Notes under the pieces: generated by a model
What the model was told of the DNA's origin: nothing
Databases searched by the model: none
The model's input: the letters and a program-made list of their open reading frames with translations, nothing else
Translations under genes and position numbers: made by a program
Assembly (NCBI GenBank): GCA_030390025.1
Contig: CM059437.1
Span: forward strand, 24,118,001 to 24,182,000
DNA length: 64,000 nt
Direction of reading: 5' to 3'
Origin: Squalus acanthias
Lineage: Eukaryota
In this document: positions 1-47,490 of the stretch, piece by piece
Layout: each line of letters starts with the position of its first letter
How positions within the stretch are numbered: position 1 is the first letter of the stretch

Positions 1-395
1 TTCCATTATTTGAAGGGGCTGCTCCTCGATTTCTGGCTGCACTTCAGTCCCACGCTCCTGATCTTTGGTCACCTGGTGCGGAGGGGAGCGGGCAGATCGG
101 AAGACCTCCTGGTAGGACTACTCCTGGCCAAGGTCCAGGCAGTGGGCAGTCGAGGGGGTCGTTCGGCCCGACTGTCTGCCTCTCTTCCACGGCCATGTTC
201 GCGCCCGGGTGGACCTGGAGATGGAGCACGCGGTGTCCGCTGGCACGCTCGAGGCCTTCCGCGACCGGTGGCCACTTCAGGGACTGGAGTGCATTATCAC
301 CCCCGCTAATGGAATTTTAATTTAATTTATTAAGTTTCCTTTAATGTATTTTTGTTAATTTACAGTTTATTTGTTCGTACCCAAAAAGAGTACAC
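1..395 (+). mobile_element. Tx1-clade (L1 group) non-LTR retrotransposon, 3' end, copy 1
   Basis: ORF2-like C-terminus ...LFHGHVRARVDLEMEHAVSAGTLEAFRDRWPLQGLECIITPANGILI* (TAA 323-325; small deletion/frameshift near 131), AT-rich 3' UTR ending aaaaagagtacac. Clade assigned by recognition. Confidence 0.7.
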
Positions 396-404
396 CCAAT
401 GAAG

Positions 405-526
405 GCAGGGACTGGAGTGCATCATCACCCTGGCCAACCAAATTTTAATTTAAGTTGTTAAGTTTTCTTTAAAATGGTTTTTTTAGTACAGTTTATTTGT
501 TTATAGTGTGCACCAAAAGAGTACAC
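405..526 (+). mobile_element. Tx1-clade 5'-truncated copy 2
   Basis: Diverged repeat of copy 1 terminus: QGLECIITLANQILI* plus 3' UTR ending aaaagagtacac; flanked by ccaatgaag at 396-404 and 527-535. Confidence 0.7.
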
Positions 527-916
527 CCAATGAAGTACTTTTTGAAGTGTAGTAACTGTTGTAATGTCGGAAACGCGGCAGCCAATTTGCGCACAGCAAG
601 CTCCCACAAACAGCAGTGATAATGACCAAATAATCTGTTCTAGATGTTGATTGAGAGATAAACATTGGCTAGGACAGCGGGGATAACTCCCCTACTCTTC
701 TTCGAAATAGTGCCACAGGATCTTTTACATCCACCTGAGAGAGCAGACGGGGCCTCGGTTTAACATCTCATCTGAAAGACGACACCTTCGACAGTGCAGC
801 ACTCCCTCACTACTGCACTGGAGCATCAGCCTAGATTTTTGTGCTCAAGTCTTTGGAGTGGGACTTAAACCCACAACCTTCTGACTCAGAGGCGAGAGTG
901 CTACCAACTGAGCCAC
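527..916 (-). mobile_element. tRNA-headed DeuSINE (SacSINE1-like), 3' tail cut off by the Tx1 insertion
   Basis: Minus strand: gtggctcagttggtagcact...ggtttaagtccc head (A/B boxes) and Deu domain (gatgtaaaagatcc...ggcactatttcgaagaagag); collinear with the full copy at 46453-46919. Confidence 0.85.
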
Positions 917-1340
917 CAGGAGAATTAGCTGGATGTTGTGATGGGACCACTCACTGCAAGTTTCTTCTGGTTGAATGTTAAGATGGGCTCCATGGTCTTG
1001 CTCTTCTGTAGTTATCTTGTGGCTTAGAGGGCCTCTGCCTTTGTTCATTTGTGAAGCACAGGACACAATTGGCGTGGGTTATTCCCCACCCACCTTAGGG
1101 AACACTATTTGCAACTAGCTCATCTTAGGAAATCTTGAAATTTTCAAGATGTGCTGCTGGTTGGTGGAATCAGTGACTAAATGTTTAATTGTGTTCTTTC
1201 TAGGTGTTGTTGATTGTATCAGAATTCTTGGGATTGTCTTGGTACACTATGGACGAATTGTATAGTTGATTACTTAGAAACAGAGTGACTGTTATGCAGG
1301 CCGGTGGGTTTCAAACTTTTCTCTATGGAGAACCTACTGC

Positions 1341-1948
1341 AAACAACAACTTGCCTTTATACCGCACCTTCAACATAGTAAAATGTCCCAAGGCGCTTCA
1401 CAAGAGCGTTAGCAATCAAAATTTGACAGAGCCACAGAGGAGATATCAGGACAGATGACCAAAAGCTTGATCAAAGAGGTAGGTTTTAAGGAGCATCTTA
1501 AAGGAGGAGAAGTGGAGAGGTTTAGGGAGGGCGTTCCAGAACCTGCAGCCGAAGGCATTGCTGCCAATGGTGGAACGATTAAACTCGGGGCTGCGCAAGA
1601 GGCCAGAATTGGAGAACCGCAGAGATCTCAGAGGGTTGTAGGGCTGGAGGAGGTTACAGAACTGGAGAGAGGCGAAGCCCTGGAGGGATTTGAAGACAAG
1701 GACGAGAATTTTAAAATTGAGGCGTTGCGGGACCAGGAGCCAGTGTAGGTCAGCGAGCAAAGGGGTGATGGGCGAACGGGACTTGGTGCAAGTTCAGAGA
1801 GGGGCAGCAGAGTTTTGGATGCCCACAGGTTTATGTAAGGTGGAAGATGGGAGGCCGACCAGGAGAGCATTGGAATCATCGAGTCTAGAGGTAACAAAGG
1901 CATAGATGAGGGTTTCAACAGCAGATGAGCTGAGGCAGGGGTGGAGAC
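1341..1948 (-). mobile_element. L2 LINE 3' part (resumes at about 5558-5616)
   Basis: ORF remnant LADLHWLLVPQRLNFKILVL, typical of the L2 C-terminus; tail ...ataaaggcaagttgttgtt; continuation after the nested CR1 matches the other L2 copies (e.g. 31020-31070). Confidence 0.85.
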
Positions 1949-2554
1949 ATAGAAACATAGAAAAATAGGAGCTGGAGTAGGCCATTCGGTCCTTCGAGCC
2001 TGCTCCGCCATTCAATATCATGGCTGATCCTCTATCTCAATACCATATTCCCGCTCTCTCCCCATACCTCTTGTGTATAGAAATCTATCTATCTCCTTCT
2101 TAAATATATTCAGTGACTTGGCCTCCACAGCCTTCTGTGGTAGAGAATTCCACAGGTTCACCACCCTCTGAGTGAAGAAATTTCTCCTCATCTCAGTCCT
2201 AAATGTCCTACCCCGTATCCTGAGACTGTGATCCCTCATTCTAGACTCCCCAGCCAGGGGAAACATCCTCCCTGCATCCAGTCTGTCTAGCCCGGTCAGA
2301 ATTTTATACGTTTCAATGAGATCCCCTCTCATTCTTCTAAACTCTCGTGAATACAGGCCTAGTCGACCCAATCTCTCCGCATACGACAGTCCTGCCATCC
2401 CAGGAATCAGTCTGGTGAACCTTCGCTGCACTCCCTCTATGGCAAGTATATCCTTTCTTAGGTAAGGAGACCAAAACTGCACACAATACTCCAGGTGTGG
2501 TCTCACCAAGGCCCTGTATAACTGTAGTAAGACATCCTTGCTCCTGTACTCAAA
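1949..2554 (-). mobile_element. CR1 LINE 3' part (continues at 5353-5557)
   Basis: LYRALVRPHLEYCVQFWSP...RRNFFTQRVVNLWNSLP and (ctatgttt)n tail; split by a Penelope insertion. Confidence 0.9.
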
Positions 2555-5352
2555 CTCTCGACATCTCTCTTCAGCAGCACCGACGCACTCTATCTCAAAG
2601 CTGTCCGGGTCCACATTTCCATTTCATCCTTAGACTCATCCGACGCTTCAACAAAAAACGTTTCTTCTTCCTTTCCGATGTCAAGGATCGCAAGCTTCAA
2701 CAACTCTCGGACACTAACGCCCCTCCGGAACCTTCTTCCCTTTCACTTTCCTCTGACCCCCCTTCTCCCAATCTCACCCCCTGCCGCGTTTTCACTATCC
2801 CCTCTGACCTTCCCCTCTCTGACTCCGAACGATCAGTCCTCAGCAAAGGCCTGAGCTTCATCCCCTTACGCCCCCATCTCAATGAATTTCGAGCTCGGCA
2901 CGATGCTGAGCTCTTTTTCCGCCGCCTCCGTCTCCGTGCCCACTTCTCTGGCCAGGAGTCTTGCCCCCGCACGGCTGACCCTTTCTCCCGCTTTCAGAAT
3001 TCTCGTTCCACCTGGACCCCTCCCTCTGGCCTCTTACCCTCTCTAGATCTTTTCATTGCTAACTGCCGCCGTGACATCGCCCAGCTCAATTTCTCTGCTC
3101 CCCTCACTCACTCCAACCTACCTCCCTCTGAACTTGCAGCACTCCATTCTCTCCGATCCAACCCTGACATTGTCATTAAACCTGCTGACAAGGGTGGTGC
3201 TGTTGTTGTTTGGTGAACCGACCTCTACCTAGCGGAAGTTGAACGCCAACTCTCCGACACCTCCTCCTACCTCCACCTGGACCATGACCCCACTACGGAA
3301 CATCAAGCCACCGTGTCCAAGACTGTCACTGACCTCATCTCCTCTGGAGATCTTCCCCCCACGGCCGCCAACCTCATAGTTCCCCAACCCCGCACAGCCC
3401 GCTTCTACCTCCTTCCCAAGATCCACAAACAGGACTGCCCTGGTAGACCCATCGTTTCAGCCTGTTCTTGCCCCACGGAACTTATCTCTTCCTATCTCGA
3501 CTCTATTTTTTCTCCCCTTGTCCAGTCTCTTCCCACCTACATCTGTGACTCTTCCGACGCCCTCCGCCATTTTAACAGTTTCCAGTTTCCCGGCCCCAAC
3601 CGTCTCCTCTTCACTATGGACGTACAATCCCTCTACACCTCCATTCCCCACCAGGATGGCCTGAGGGCGCTCCGCTTCTTCCTTGAACAGAGGCCCAACC
3701 AGTCCCCATCCACTACCACCCTCCTCCGCCTGGCTGAACTTGTTCTCACATTGAACAACTTCTCCTTTGACTCTACCCATTTCCTCCAAATTAAAAGGTG
3801 TTGCTATGGGTACCCGCATGGGTCCTAGCTATGCCTGCCTTTTCGTGGGATATGTGGAACACTCTTTGTTCCAGTCCTACTCGGGTCCCCTCCCTCACCT
3901 CTTTTTCCGGTACATTGATGACTGTATCGGTGCCGTCTCCTGCTCTCGCCCTGAACTAGAACATTTCATTCACTATGCTTCCAATTTCCACCCTTCCCTC
4001 ACCTTCACATGGTCCATCTCCGACTCTTCCCTTCCCTTCCTCGACTTCTCCATCTCCATCTCTGGGGATAGGTTATTGACTAACATTCACTACAAGCCCA
4101 CTGACTCCCACAGCTACCTGGACTACACTTCCTCCCACCCCGCCTCCTGTAAGGACTCTATTCCATTCTCCCAGTTTCTCCGTCTCCGCCGCATCTGCTC
4201 TGATGATGCCACCTTCCATACCAGTGCTTCCGACATGTCTTCCTTTTTCCTCAACCGAGGATTCCCCTCTACCATGGTCGACACGGCCCTCGACCGTGTC
4301 CGTTCTATCTCCCGCACTTCTGCCCTCACCCCTGCCCCTCCCTCCCGGAACCACGATAGGGTTCCCCTTGTCCTCACCTTTCACCCCACCAGCCTCCACA
4401 TTCAACGGATCATCCTCCGCCATTTCCGTCACCTCCAGCGTGATCCCACCACCAAACGCATCTTCCCCTCACCTCCCCTTTCAGCATTCCGCAGGGACCG
4501 CTCCCTCCGCGACACCCTAGTCCACTCCTCTACCACCCCCAGCACCCCTTCCCCTTCGCCCGGCACCTTCCCGTGCACGTGCAGGAGATGCAACACATGC
4601 CCTTATACCTCCCCTCTTCCCACTGTCCAGGGCCCCAAACACCCCTTCCAGGTGAAACAGCGATTTACTTGTACTTCCTGCAATTTAGTATACTGTATTC
4701 GCTGCTCACGATGTGGTCTCCTCTACATTGGGAGACCAAACGCAGATTGGGTGACCGCTTTGCGGAACACCTCCGTTCAGTCCGTAAGGGGGACCCCGAG
4801 CTCCCGGTGGCCTGTCACTTTAATTCACCGCTTCACTCCCACTCTGACCTCACCGTCCTCGGCCTATTACACTGTTCCACGGAAGCGCAGCGTAAGCGCG
4901 AGGAACAGCACCTCATCTTTCGTTTAGGCACGCTACAGCCCTCTGGACTCAATATCGAGTTCAACAATTTTAGATCATAACCTCAGCTCCAATCACATTT
5001 ATATTTTATTTTTTCATCCACCCTTTTATTTGCCCCCCCCCCCCACTTTTTTTTCCTCCTAGAAGCTGGCAGCTGTCCTTCATTCTGCCAGTGGATTTCA
5101 CACTTCTTTCAGCCTTAATCTGTCACATCAACACCACCTCTTGCCTTGCATATCTCTTAATGTCTCTTAATCTCCCCTTTTGTTCCTTTATCCCCTCCCC
5201 CTTTTCCCAGCTTTATCCTGGCCTTAAATCTATTTGATTTCTGGCTCTTTCCAGTTCTAACGAAAGGTCATCGACCTGAAACGTTAACTCTCTTTCTCTC
5301 TCCACGGATGTTGTCTGGCCTGCTGAGCTTTTCCAGCGTTTTCTGTTGTTAT
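2555..5352 (+). mobile_element. Penelope-like element (Neptune-type), 5'-truncated and disabled
   Basis: KPADKGG; RT motifs [22 protein letters not shown]; Cys-rich linker PCTCRRCNTC; GIY-YIG region NLVYCIRCSRCGLLYIG; ORF end 4980. Stop at 3214-3216 and frameshifts near 3795 and 4730. 13-bp TSD tcctgt(a/c)ctcaaa at 2542-2554 and 5353-5365. Confidence 0.92.
5253..5289 (+). ncRNA. Minimal type I hammerhead-like motif in Penelope pLTR (core mutated, CUAACGA)
   Basis: AGTT-CTAACGA-A-AGGTC-ATC-GACCT-GAAA-CGTT-AACT; G5 is replaced, so likely inactive. Confidence 0.65.
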
Positions 5353-12498: not shown

Positions 12499-15441
12499 AA
12501 TTTCCACTTGAATGCATCCTTAAAGGCACATTATCCTGTATAGAATCTTCTAAATAGGAATATGGTTGAATTGTGACAAAGGCATAACTAGTTTGCCAAA
12601 TTAATTTGGAAGCGACTTTGCTATCATGGAAACATCCTGCAATTTCCTCCATAATCCCAGTGTGCATATACTCAGTCTACTGATCATTGTAGTTAGTAGC
12701 ACTGTTCCGGGTACTATAATAACTGTACACAGTCAATCTTGCACAGTTTTCAGTGGGAGACAACAGAACAGTAATACAAAGATTACAAGTAAATTGAAGT
12801 TTTTTTAAAAAAAAACTTCTTTTAACCCCACAACTCAGAACAAGTACATTTATAAACTAATGAATTTTGAGAATTGAACTTTGTCTCCTAAAAATAAAGA
12901 GGATAAGTTATAAATAGTCTACCCATATTAACTCAAAGTTGCTTTTGCTTTGAAAAAAAAATTTAATTAACCAGTAATTTGAATTAAGCAATACAAAATA
13001 GCACAAGAGGCAGTTTGTGCTGGAAAAAAAAATTCAAATAGGACTTTTCTGTTATAAATACTTAAAAAAAAGCATACAAGAGCTGGCAGCCAGACCCTAA
13101 TTTTGGCTTAGCTATACATTCCGAGTTGGTCAGTTTTATCTTTGAAAAAGACAAAAGGAATTCTTATCAAACTAACAGCAGTTGTTGTGTCAATGCTAAA
13201 CAGTATTACACATTTAAAGTCAAGATCTCAAATTTGGTTCGATTGTGAAAACCAGTAACAATCAGCGGTTTTTGATTTGCTTAGATCTTTAGCACAATGG
13301 AAATCAAATTGGTACATACGATCCAAGTTACCAAATATGCAGACAAAAAATATAGATTTATAGAATTCCTTCTTTCTGCTTTTTAATTTATGGGACAAGA
13401 ACATTTCTTGGAACTATGAACAGAAATGGACATCTTTCTTTCTGTTCCTTCCATTTCAAAATGGAGATAGTATTGTACAGAACAATTTTCACATCTATAT
13501 TACAAAGAACTTTTGCATTCCTATGTTCTACTGTAGTGTGTGCTCGAAATGTACCAGTGGAATGAAAAATTTCTGATCTATGTTTTGCTAAATAAATATG
13601 GTAACCAAGGATATTGCACAATCGGAAATAAATGACTGGACCTTCCTCCAAGCTTATAGTCTGGATTCTGTGAGGCATAGAGTGTCTCAGCTTAGATTAT
13701 AACATGAACTGCGTGTGTCCAAAGTAAATTGATACTGTTTTCAATGACCTCACAATGACGTGATTAATTAATTACACTTAATGGTTAAGACATGTATGGT
13801 TTGCATATTAATTTAATATAGTGCAAAAATGGGATTATAGGAAAGAACATGATTAAGATATCAAAATTCTTCTTCAATACATATGTTTGATATCCTACAG
13901 ACCAGAGAGCAGTACTGACCATATGCTGTACAACATTAAACAGAATGACTTCTCAACGGAGTTCAGAACTAGCAAAGGGGTGAGGAAAAGCAGACAAAAG
14001 AAAATGGAATTCCCGATTTTATATCAGGACATCCCAGTCACACCTGAACAATACACCTTTACAACATAACTGAATATATTATATCTGTATCTGAATACAT
14101 TTTAAATAAATCTGTATGATATTTGTAACCAAGACATTTTAAATAATTGCTTGATTGCAACCATTAAGTTACAGTTGGATCTTGCTGCCAAGAGTGACTG
14201 ATCCCTGGGAAATATTACTGAAAGGAAATGACACTCCCCTAATCAAACAGAGGGCACTTACAGTAATCTGTTCAGGTCATACCCAATGCCCAGAAAGTAC
14301 AAAACTAATATGCATGACAGGAATACAGACGCATCACCAAGCACAATTAAGACACGGGCTGTAACACTTGTTTGATGCTCCAATGCACAATGCCATGGAG
14401 TGGTAGGATGTGGGTCTGTGCAGCAATTCCCCACATGGTAAGTTACCTGAGCTTCAAAGCTAGGTTCCTTTGCAAGAAAAGGTAAAAAGATAATCGCCAC
14501 CCTGAGCTGCTCTCTCATTCCTCCAAGAAACTTTGCACAGGCCAATAGGTAGGCTACCTTCCCACCTTCATTGGCTGAGGACTGGTGTGGGGACAGGGAA
14601 ACAATTTAAAAAGGCAAAAATTAACATTTAAAATTTAATTACAAAGGCTATGGAGACAACAAAACTTGCTATCAAACTTAATAAATGCTGGGACAGGAAA
14701 ATGTTTGCCCTAGAACCACAAGATTCTCTGACATAGGGGCCTCATTAAAAAATATTTTGAGTTTGCACTGAGAAATGTGGTTGAAGTGCTTATGCTTCTT
14801 AGCCAGGCTGCAACATTGATAACCTGTCTTACTATAGCAGACATTCCTCTGGATGGCTGACTATTAGAAATTATGACAAGGATCATGCGAGAGATTCAGC
14901 CGTCAGTTCTCACCTAGTTGCAAGTATTCATTGAAAATGAGTGGAACAAAAAAAACCCTCCCTGAATAACTATGAATTATAAGTGTCCCTTTTATAGAAA
15001 GCTGATTAAAACCATCTAGCTATAATATATTTAAAGTCTTGCAATATAGTGTGCGCTTCTTGCAAATGTCACACTTGCTTCCTGTAACACTTTTCCCATC
15101 ACATGTTGTTGATAACACTATTGTTATAAAACAGCACATCCTACGATTCAACATGAGCAGCGCCATGGGCAATCTGTCATTTTATAAATATTAAATTCGT
15201 CTTTAAAAAAAAAAAACTTCTTTGTAGTCACTTATAAATTTGAATTAAAATACAATTGTAACTGACCTCTGGGGAAAATGATCCAGTCATCAATGTAATA
15301 TACCTCAAACTTTCAGCTGAGGCTGTGATATTCGAAAAAAGAGCAGCATAGGTTTAATTTGCAATGGATTTGAACATCTAAAATCAATCTTTCATAGGAC
15401 AAAATAGAATGTCTTGAATAAAATATATACATCAGGAAATA

Positions 15442-46147: not shown

Positions 46148-46253
46148 GTTTATTGCAACACCATTTGCTAAGTCTCTTGGAGTAGACTGTCGGCCAATTC
46201 AGAAGGCTCAGCAAAACATTGTTCTGGAAAAAGTGTTCAAAGATATAACTACG
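46148..46253 (+). CDS. Ceramide synthase exon 2
   Basis: 106 bp; tgtag and GTGAGA; FIATPFAKSLGVDCRPIQKAQQNIVLEKVFKDITT. Confidence 0.92.
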
Positions 46254-46452
46254 GTGAGATTATATTGACCGAGTCTTAGAACTAATTATTACAAAGAAGA
46301 ACTTACGTTAAATAAATATATTTGCAGCAAATGTTTACAAATATAGAAAATGAACTGTTTGTTTCTAAAATTAAGTGTCTCATTTTTCATAATACTCAGC
46401 AACAACAACTTGCATTTATATAGCTCTTTTTAATGTAGAAAAATGATCCAAA

Positions 46453-46919
46453 GAAAGAAAGACTTGCATTTATATAGCACCTTTCATGACCACCGGATGT
46501 CCCAAAGCGCTTTACAGCCAATGAAGTACTTTTGAAGTGTAGTCGCTGTTGTAATGTAGGCAACGCGGCAGCCAATTTGCGCACAGCAAGCTCCCACAAA
46601 CAGCAATGTGATAATGACCAGATAATCTGTTTTTGTTATGTTGTTTGAGGGATAAATATTGGCCAGGACACCGGGGATAACTCCCCTGCTCATCTTCGAA
46701 ATAGTGCCATAGGATCTTTTACGTCCGCCTGAGAGGGCAGATGGGGCCTCGGTTTAACGTCTCATCCGAAAGGCGGCACCTCTAACAGTGCAGCGCTCCC
46801 TCAGCACTGCTTTGGACTGTCAGCCTAGATTTTTGTGCTCAAGTCTCTGGAGTGGGACTTGAACCCACAACCTTCTGACTCTGAGGCGAGAGCGCTACCA
46901 ACTGAGCCACAGCTGACAC
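46453..46919 (-). mobile_element. DeuSINE (SacSINE1-like), full length, inserted in an L2 3' end
   Basis: Best-preserved copy; contains the intact site tttacag-ccaatgaag-tactttt. L2 pieces flank it at about 46399-46452 and 46920-47490. Confidence 0.88.
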
Positions 46920-47490
46920 TGAGAGATGTAATCAGACATAAAATGGACATCAGGCTAAAGAAGGAGATATTAGGAGGGGTGACCAAAAGTTTGGGAAAAG
47001 AGGTGGGTTTTAAGAAGGGTCTGAGAGGAAGAGGGCAGTGGAGGGGCTTAGGGAGGGAATTCCAGAGTGTGGGGCCTAGCTTGCTGAAGGCGTGGCCAAC
47101 AATGGTGGGGTGAAAGGAGGAAGTGATAGTCAGAAGAATGGAGAGTTTTGGGAGGGTTGGGGTAGTAGGGCTGGAGAAGGTTACAGAGATGGGGAGGGGT
47201 AAGGCCATGAAGGGATTTAAACACGTGAATGAGAATTTCAAATTTGAGGCATTGGGGAACCAGAAGCCAATTTCGGTCAGCAAGGGCAGGAGTGATGGGT
47301 GAACGGGACTTGATGTGGATAGGATATGGAGAGCAGAGTTTCGGATGAGCTGAAGATTACAGTTTGTGGAGGATGTGAGGTCAGGCAAGATAGCCTTAAA
47401 ATAATTGAGCCTGGAAGTGACAAAGTCATGGCTGAGTACTTCAGCAGCTGCTGCGCTGAGGCAGGGCGACGGTGGAAATGTTATGATGGC
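46920..47490 (-). mobile_element. L2 LINE fragment
   Basis: FVTSRLNY..IRNSA..GHAFSKLGPTLWNSLP. Confidence 0.8.

Follow-up and report, generated by a model that had tools for sequence, protein, structure and literature searches.

Tx1L of Xenopus laevis (ORF2 = YTX2_XENLA, protein P0022) combines an APE endonuclease, a reverse transcriptase (RT) and a zinc-binding end, and the same combination is found in the retrotransposon family of the shark Squalus acanthias described here. Tx1L sits in a DNA transposon according to the available portions of two reports (PMC4494074, PMC1950540) and is described as highly specific for one Tx1D site, whereas the shark family uses a 6-bp word genome-wide and has only about 6% of its copies (5/84 listed loci) in its preferred transposon. 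Also comparable is Tx1-9_AMi of crocodilians, a Tx1 family that favours Harbinger DNA transposons and enters them close to their 5' end (Kojima, 2015, PMC4494074). In the part of that paper available, this site lies about 300 bp from the Harbinger end and exceeds Kojima's threshold for a target, more than 20% of flanks being of one sequence type; the shark family lies about 170-185 bp inside its host and stays below that threshold. The same portion of text mentions no long duplication for Tx1-9_AMi, while one is seen in the shark family. A Harbinger-targeting Tx1 and arrays separated by target site duplications are already published, and a short target motif and a preferred host are each known in kind.

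The locus studied here lies at the start of a 64,000-nt stretch of S. acanthias DNA, referred to as the window, whose features are collected in Table 1. Judged from its sequence, the element is a non-LTR retrotransposon of the Tx1 clade (L1 group), as the sequence-only reading had proposed, and the Tx1L ORF2 matches of near-full-length relatives confirm this. These relatives are about 6.5 kb long, with an ORF1 and an ORF2 bearing endonuclease, RT and a zinc-binding end; the separate ORF1/ORF2 layout was seen in four copies (L124, L126, L129, L131). Most blocks of the endonuclease, RT and C-terminal region are 43-64% identical to Xenopus Tx1L ORF2, with weaker blocks at 26-42%. ORF2 matches Tx1L ORF2 with E 3.6e-116 (53%) and human L1 ORF2p weakly (E 4e-23, in a different database). 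Pfam matches comprise Exo_endo_phos and RVT_1. Two further ones stay under the curated cut-off: zf-CCHC (E 0.005), for the zinc knuckle of ORF1, and zf-RVT (E 1.6e-5), for the C-terminal zinc-binding motif of ORF2. The family also has 5' truncation, a fixed 3' end and a target duplication.

The first unit, E1, consists of the frameshifted end of ORF2 (matching Tx1L ORF2 residues 1188-1231 by tblastn, E 1e-8) and a short 3' UTR, and terminates in AAAAGAGTACAC without poly(A); it is 84% identical to the near-full-length copy L126. E1 ends in aaaagagtacac at 384-395, and E2 ends with an identical aaaagagtacac. The two units agree in 96 of 130 aligned columns, reading CIITPANGILI and CIITLANQILI respectively, and fall in separate clades of a FastTree tree with modest support. 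The arrangement E1-CCAATGAAG-E2-CCAATGAAG-SINE agrees in positions and letters with the earlier description.

Table 1. Features of the stacked insertion and of the intact SINE copy in the window
Feature	Position	Strand	Remark
E1	1..395	+	5'-truncated Tx1-clade LINE; its 400 bp include 5 bases upstream of the window
Terminal TACAC	391..395	+	Equals the five letters preceding the duplication at empty target sites (106-junction frequency table)
CCAATGAAG, middle copy of the 9-bp target duplication	396..404	+
E2	405..526	+	122-bp 5'-truncated copy from another lineage of E1's family
CCAATGAAG, 3' copy of the 9-bp target duplication	527..535	+
Interrupted SINE, head and body	536..918	-	Tail resumes upstream of the window
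Intact SINE copy	46451..46920	-	TTTACAG-CCAATGAAG, missing the family motif by one base

The interrupted repeat, which we take to be a DeuSINE/SacSINE1, is 89% identical to the intact copy across 399 bp. Its tRNA-like A and B boxes were recognized by eye, and ARAGORN found no tRNA in it. A DeuSINE-like (SacSINE1-like) SINE is described in sharks in the accessible text of one study (PMC5499810). At about 46511-46542, the intact copy reads tttacag-ccaatgaag-tacttttgaagtgtag (that is, tttacag-ccaatgaag-tacttttg), which bears out the proposal that the 9-mer is SINE sequence duplicated by insertion. The word CCAATGAAG occurs four times within the window, against a chance mean of 1.16, and its match at 14566 is non-SINE. 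The SINE tail predicted at the 5' junction of E1 was recovered upstream of the window as ...AAAGCGCTTTACAC / ...GCGCTTTACAC CAAATGA TA, followed by E1; the 5' duplicate there is imperfect (CAAATGATA).

Two genic features lie near these repeats. Some 1.16 kb before the first base of the window lies the first coding exon of ribosomal protein L27 (L031:8757-8837, minus strand), and the stacked insertion with its SINE lies immediately upstream of the GC-rich promoter region of this gene. Within the window, 46149-46253 is exon-like with splice sites at both ends; it is putatively coding and may resemble a ceramide synthase.

The suggestion that the SINE is the family's chosen target did not survive a tabulation of flanks, whose outcome is one that the sequence-only reading had itself named as refuting. 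A search of the 3.7-Gb genome for the end motif CARAAGAGTACAC gave 898 matches, where a control gave 106. The first 100 of the 898 gave 99 distinct ends; BLAST found the element upstream of 86, corresponding to 84 loci, and among the 13 of 99 ends without it, one (L158) is a true insertion of 17 bp. The SINE site occurs at none of these 84 position-ordered loci, and none of the other 40 copies closest to E1 has it, their flanks being unrelated; the SINE stays below Kojima's 20% of flanks. Allowing at most one mismatch, the element end followed by CCAATGAAG has six matches at five loci genome-wide, four of which are SINE. A family sequence-specific for the SINE tail would account for these four loci at exactly one SINE position, and the SINE consensus equals the motif save one base, but only about 0.005% of the 76,928 exact sites of that consensus (TTTACAGCCAATGAAG, with TTTACAG) are filled, and all four filled copies depart from the consensus TACAG, reading TACAC, TACAC, TACTC and TGCGG before the duplicate. 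We regard such specificity as very improbable: the SINE is not the family's target, and landing in it is only rare. The window's interrupted copy has TTTACAC, against TTTACAG in the intact one, and this TACAC in place of TACAG probably made it a target. The genome holds 445 sites of the TTTACAC variant; no element was present at 20 sampled, and by arithmetic the motif alone predicts about 0.6 filled variant sites, with two seen, one of them the query itself.

What the family recognizes is a shorter word. At 106 junctions with a called duplication, drawn from 177 loci or arrays after dropping 71 without a confident one, the bases at -6 to -1 are T (82), T (96), A (97), C (99), A (99) and C (99), i.e., 77-93% per position. 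Identity between the 5' and 3' copies spans -5 through the ninth downstream base and then stops sharply, and the motif persists at the 81 junctions left after removing repeat-host sites. Insertion takes place just 3' of (T)TACAC, and the 9 bp that follow are duplicated. With GTACAC also forming the last letters of the element, a length of either 9 or 14 bp can be assigned to the duplication: a nick after TACAC would make it 9 bp, a nick before TACAC 14 bp. At three loci, position -1 is G on the 5' side but C on the 3' side, which weakly favours a 9-bp duplication and an RNA-encoded TACAC, most loci having been selected by their 3' ends. About 2.0 million TTACAC sites are present in the genome.

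Three loci illustrate the variety of such insertions. The 17-bp insertion at L158 comes from the very end of the element and has a flawless TACAC and 9-bp duplicate. L137 is a 17-bp satellite with TTTTACAC in each unit and two separate family insertions. At L040, two truncated copies face apart with about 1.2 kb between them and stray terminal 12-mers nearby, an arrangement that is possibly an inversion.

One host is entered more often than chance predicts, a repeat that we take to be Harbinger-like in view of a weak Myb/SANT match (Myb_DNA-bind_4, E 7e-4, below cut-off); it has a sharp 5' boundary, GGGCTAGAAATT. Its site, about 170-185 bp inside and with TCAAAGGGT as its 9-mer, accounts for 5 of the 84 listed loci and 4 of the 40 best copies, enriched yet below Kojima's 20%. 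It has 1,404 exact sites in the genome, and among the first 100 of them the element occupies 5 (about 5%). A second repeat, presumably CR1-like, takes three of the 84 listed loci. We examined 43 stretches around full-length heads and could place all but a few. At nine loci in the Harbinger-like site, about 125-150 bp of downstream host sequence is repeated before a full-length element; in L126, L129 and L277 both host copies share private variants, and the host duplication is therefore local. The remaining full-length heads are mostly those of lineages housed in different repeats; GAGGAACAC and GGGGGCAC are examples of their ends.

Several of these relatives deserve mention in their own right. 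Seven loci (L284-L286, L289, L291-L293) represent a young lineage about 91-92% like L126 and ending in GAGGAACAC; it lies behind ACAACAC in a different repeat and includes full-length tandems. The five letters at its end follow its own target, just as TACAC does in the window's family. A further seven (L130, L131, L134, L278, L281, L288, L290) belong to lineages placed within leader regions of further repeats; in front of L131 stand another element end and a 223-bp duplicate containing TATAAAA, and some of the leader-sited lineages have an extended 3' end holding a second TTACAC. L283 and L294 (G000:C19) form a head-to-tail full-length array with about 135 bp of Harbinger-like host between copies, and their compared 3' region is nearly identical to that of a young-lineage copy.

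Stacking of the kind seen in the window is common. Head-to-tail arrays occupy 12 of the 84 listed loci, or about 10% after correction for extra ends, and their units derive from different lineages. By arithmetic, independent insertion (about 2,000-5,000 insertions, or about 1,800-3,000 ends, over about 2.0 million TTACAC sites) predicts 0.1-0.25%. The sequence-only reading had taken the two units of the window for independent insertions and not for a local duplicate; the latter half holds, while the former is doubtful with arrays some 40-100 times commoner than independent insertions would give. Sites of arrays have no better motif scores than those of single copies (p 0.29), and the hot Harbinger-like site (2/13 arrays) shows the same array rate as ordinary sites.

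The anatomy of the arrays is equally telling. Neighbouring units share their 5' truncation point in 13 of 25 resolved pairs (chance 1.1%) and start differently in the other 12, the window's pair included. In 11 same-start pairs, the units differ by 2.3% in the first 28 nt and by 20% in the last 70 nt, against 9.2% between unrelated singles over the same first columns; none of the same-start pairs aligned is a plain duplicate, the tails being only 72-89% alike. Two arrays carry a foreign middle spacer. The composite of element end, TCAAAGGGT and a short unit recurs at six dispersed loci with four or five different upstream tails, and a seventh locus is similar; the two resolved composites lie whole inside a different local 9-bp duplication. 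A second foreign junction was found once. In these counts, L085 (no spacer; internal rearrangement), L137 (separate satellite sites) and L133 (segmental repeat) are not arrays, the 5' ends of L055 and L142 are left out, and the pair at L128 was scored by eye. Twelve matches on C27 resembled a target array but proved to come from one insertion copied by segmental tandem duplication in units of 13.7 kb. This repeat (L078-L081, G000:C27, 5.79-6.15 Mb) is 99.6% identical between neighbours, with one short insertion per unit, and no Rfam or tRNA match was found in it.

We infer that the array excess, the shared truncations and the foreign spacers favour one linked integration episode over R1-style later re-insertion. 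For E1 and E2 themselves, stacking in a single such episode, with RT starting afresh, from the same nick, on another RNA, is slightly better than an even bet (about 0.55). The endonuclease would nick beside TTACAC and RT would copy a family RNA. The truncated first cDNA would then copy the 9-nt top-strand overhang, bringing its 3' end to the original nick beside TTACAC, and this unsealed end could prime on a second family RNA. If second-strand synthesis had begun, the new cDNA would pair with the first unit and inherit its 5' truncation; if it had not, as presumably in the window, the units would start at different points. The foreign-spacer composites would fit the same switch at a spacer carried by the RNA. 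In full-length copies, the same pairing with downstream DNA would duplicate the 125-150 bp of Harbinger-like host, and this segment may supply their putative promoter. Taken together, a LINE that writes multi-RNA arrays in single events, whose full-length copies capture a host promoter region by the same step and whose lineages, sharing one short endonuclease motif, gain different home repeats (such as Harbinger-like and CR1-like ones) through RNA ends and not through their nuclease, is a tentative proposal to which we give somewhat less than even odds.

The alternative with published precedents holds that separate insertions came later and used again the TTACAC and 9-mer that a resident copy has at its 5' end, which is how R1 behaves in 28S rDNA; the resident would attract the next insertion through open chromatin or RNA-DNA pairing, and the new cDNA would complete its 5' end on the resident. 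Such events are on record, in the accessible portions of the papers concerned, for R1 (PMC2718515), Drosophila dimers (PMC5932611) and SINEU-3 (PMC4494074). This course accounts equally for shared 5' starts and suits units of different lineages, and duplications are slightly less diverged in arrays (5/128, 3.9%) than in singles (37/576, 6.4%), a difference that is not significant. It nevertheless needs a 40- to 100-fold attraction to filled sites that the site sequence does not show, the uniform array rate at hot and ordinary sites speaks against it, and most of the six foreign-spacer composites would require re-hits plus tail replacement. We consider it possible, though not probable. Local duplication by slippage between direct repeats, with later gene conversion altering one tail, would explain identical 5' starts and a shared spacer, but the lack of any plain duplicate among the aligned same-start pairs and the many pairs with different starts count against it, and foreign spacers are impossible under it; we judge it largely refuted.

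Our tests are neutral between a single episode and later insertion attracted by a resident copy. In a comparison of polarity, the upstream unit is the chimera in three pairs, the downstream unit in one, and seven are uninformative; a change-point regression for this polarity gave conflicting signs and is confounded by body similarity between lineages. G at -6 occurs in 2 of 106 targets, and re-use of the 5' site by either model is compatible with this. The window's own pair belongs to the class least diagnostic for coupling because its starts differ. Site hotness varies at least 20-fold, and unrecognized hot sites could raise the independent expectation. Contigs of related organisms aligned at the window locus and at the five-unit array L002 break in repeats, and none spans an array; a contig of organism H, which leads out of the final L002 unit to its flank, is silent on order.

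These arrays bear on how 5' ends are joined and the first strand is sealed in non-LTR elements. With some 2,000 insertions or more and a share of about 10%, natural arrays should run to hundreds, and their shared truncations and traceable tails amount to a record of the joining and sealing steps. They suggest that tandem copies with an intervening duplicate need not imply independent insertions, contrary to how the papers cited here read such dimers. Within the radiation, lineages with relaxed and with strict targeting are about 90% alike, and this series lends itself to asking whether nuclease or RNA sets the target. An RNA starting inside the duplicated host segment and reading past GAGTACAC would fit promoter capture and RNA-guided host choice. 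In a literature search that did not extend to Repbase or to most of the subscription literature, no paper came up on Tx1 elements that target SINEs, on Tx1 targets in sharks, on re-priming arrays or on arrays of such anatomy.

What stands out in this Tx1 family is its unusually high rate of mixed-lineage arrays; its short motif and its preference for a transposon host are both known in kind. The R1 arrays of Drosophila 28S rDNA are similar in having head-to-tail units with one target duplication between them (Stage and Eickbush, 2009, PMC2718515). Re-hits are expected for R1, whose single target is saturated, and the accessible text of that study reports neither shared truncation points nor foreign spacers; the shark family has both, and forms about 10% arrays despite millions of free sites. 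Dimers of transposable elements arising by double insertion carry a target duplication at the junction (McGurk and Barbash, 2018, PMC5932611), as does tandem SINEU-3 (PMC4494074), and the available portions of these papers ascribe both to site preference and sequential insertion; jockey dimers have clearly distinct truncations in six of ten cases (PMC5932611). In the shark family, by contrast, half of the pairs share their truncation yet differ in the tail. R2 offers a different parallel: in the end-to-end template jumping that Bibillo and Eickbush are said to have described in 2004, RT reportedly proceeds onto a second RNA in one event and leaves no target duplicate between units. The shark units, unlike the products of R2 jumps, are separated by a 9-bp duplicate, and the likeness lies in the second RNA.
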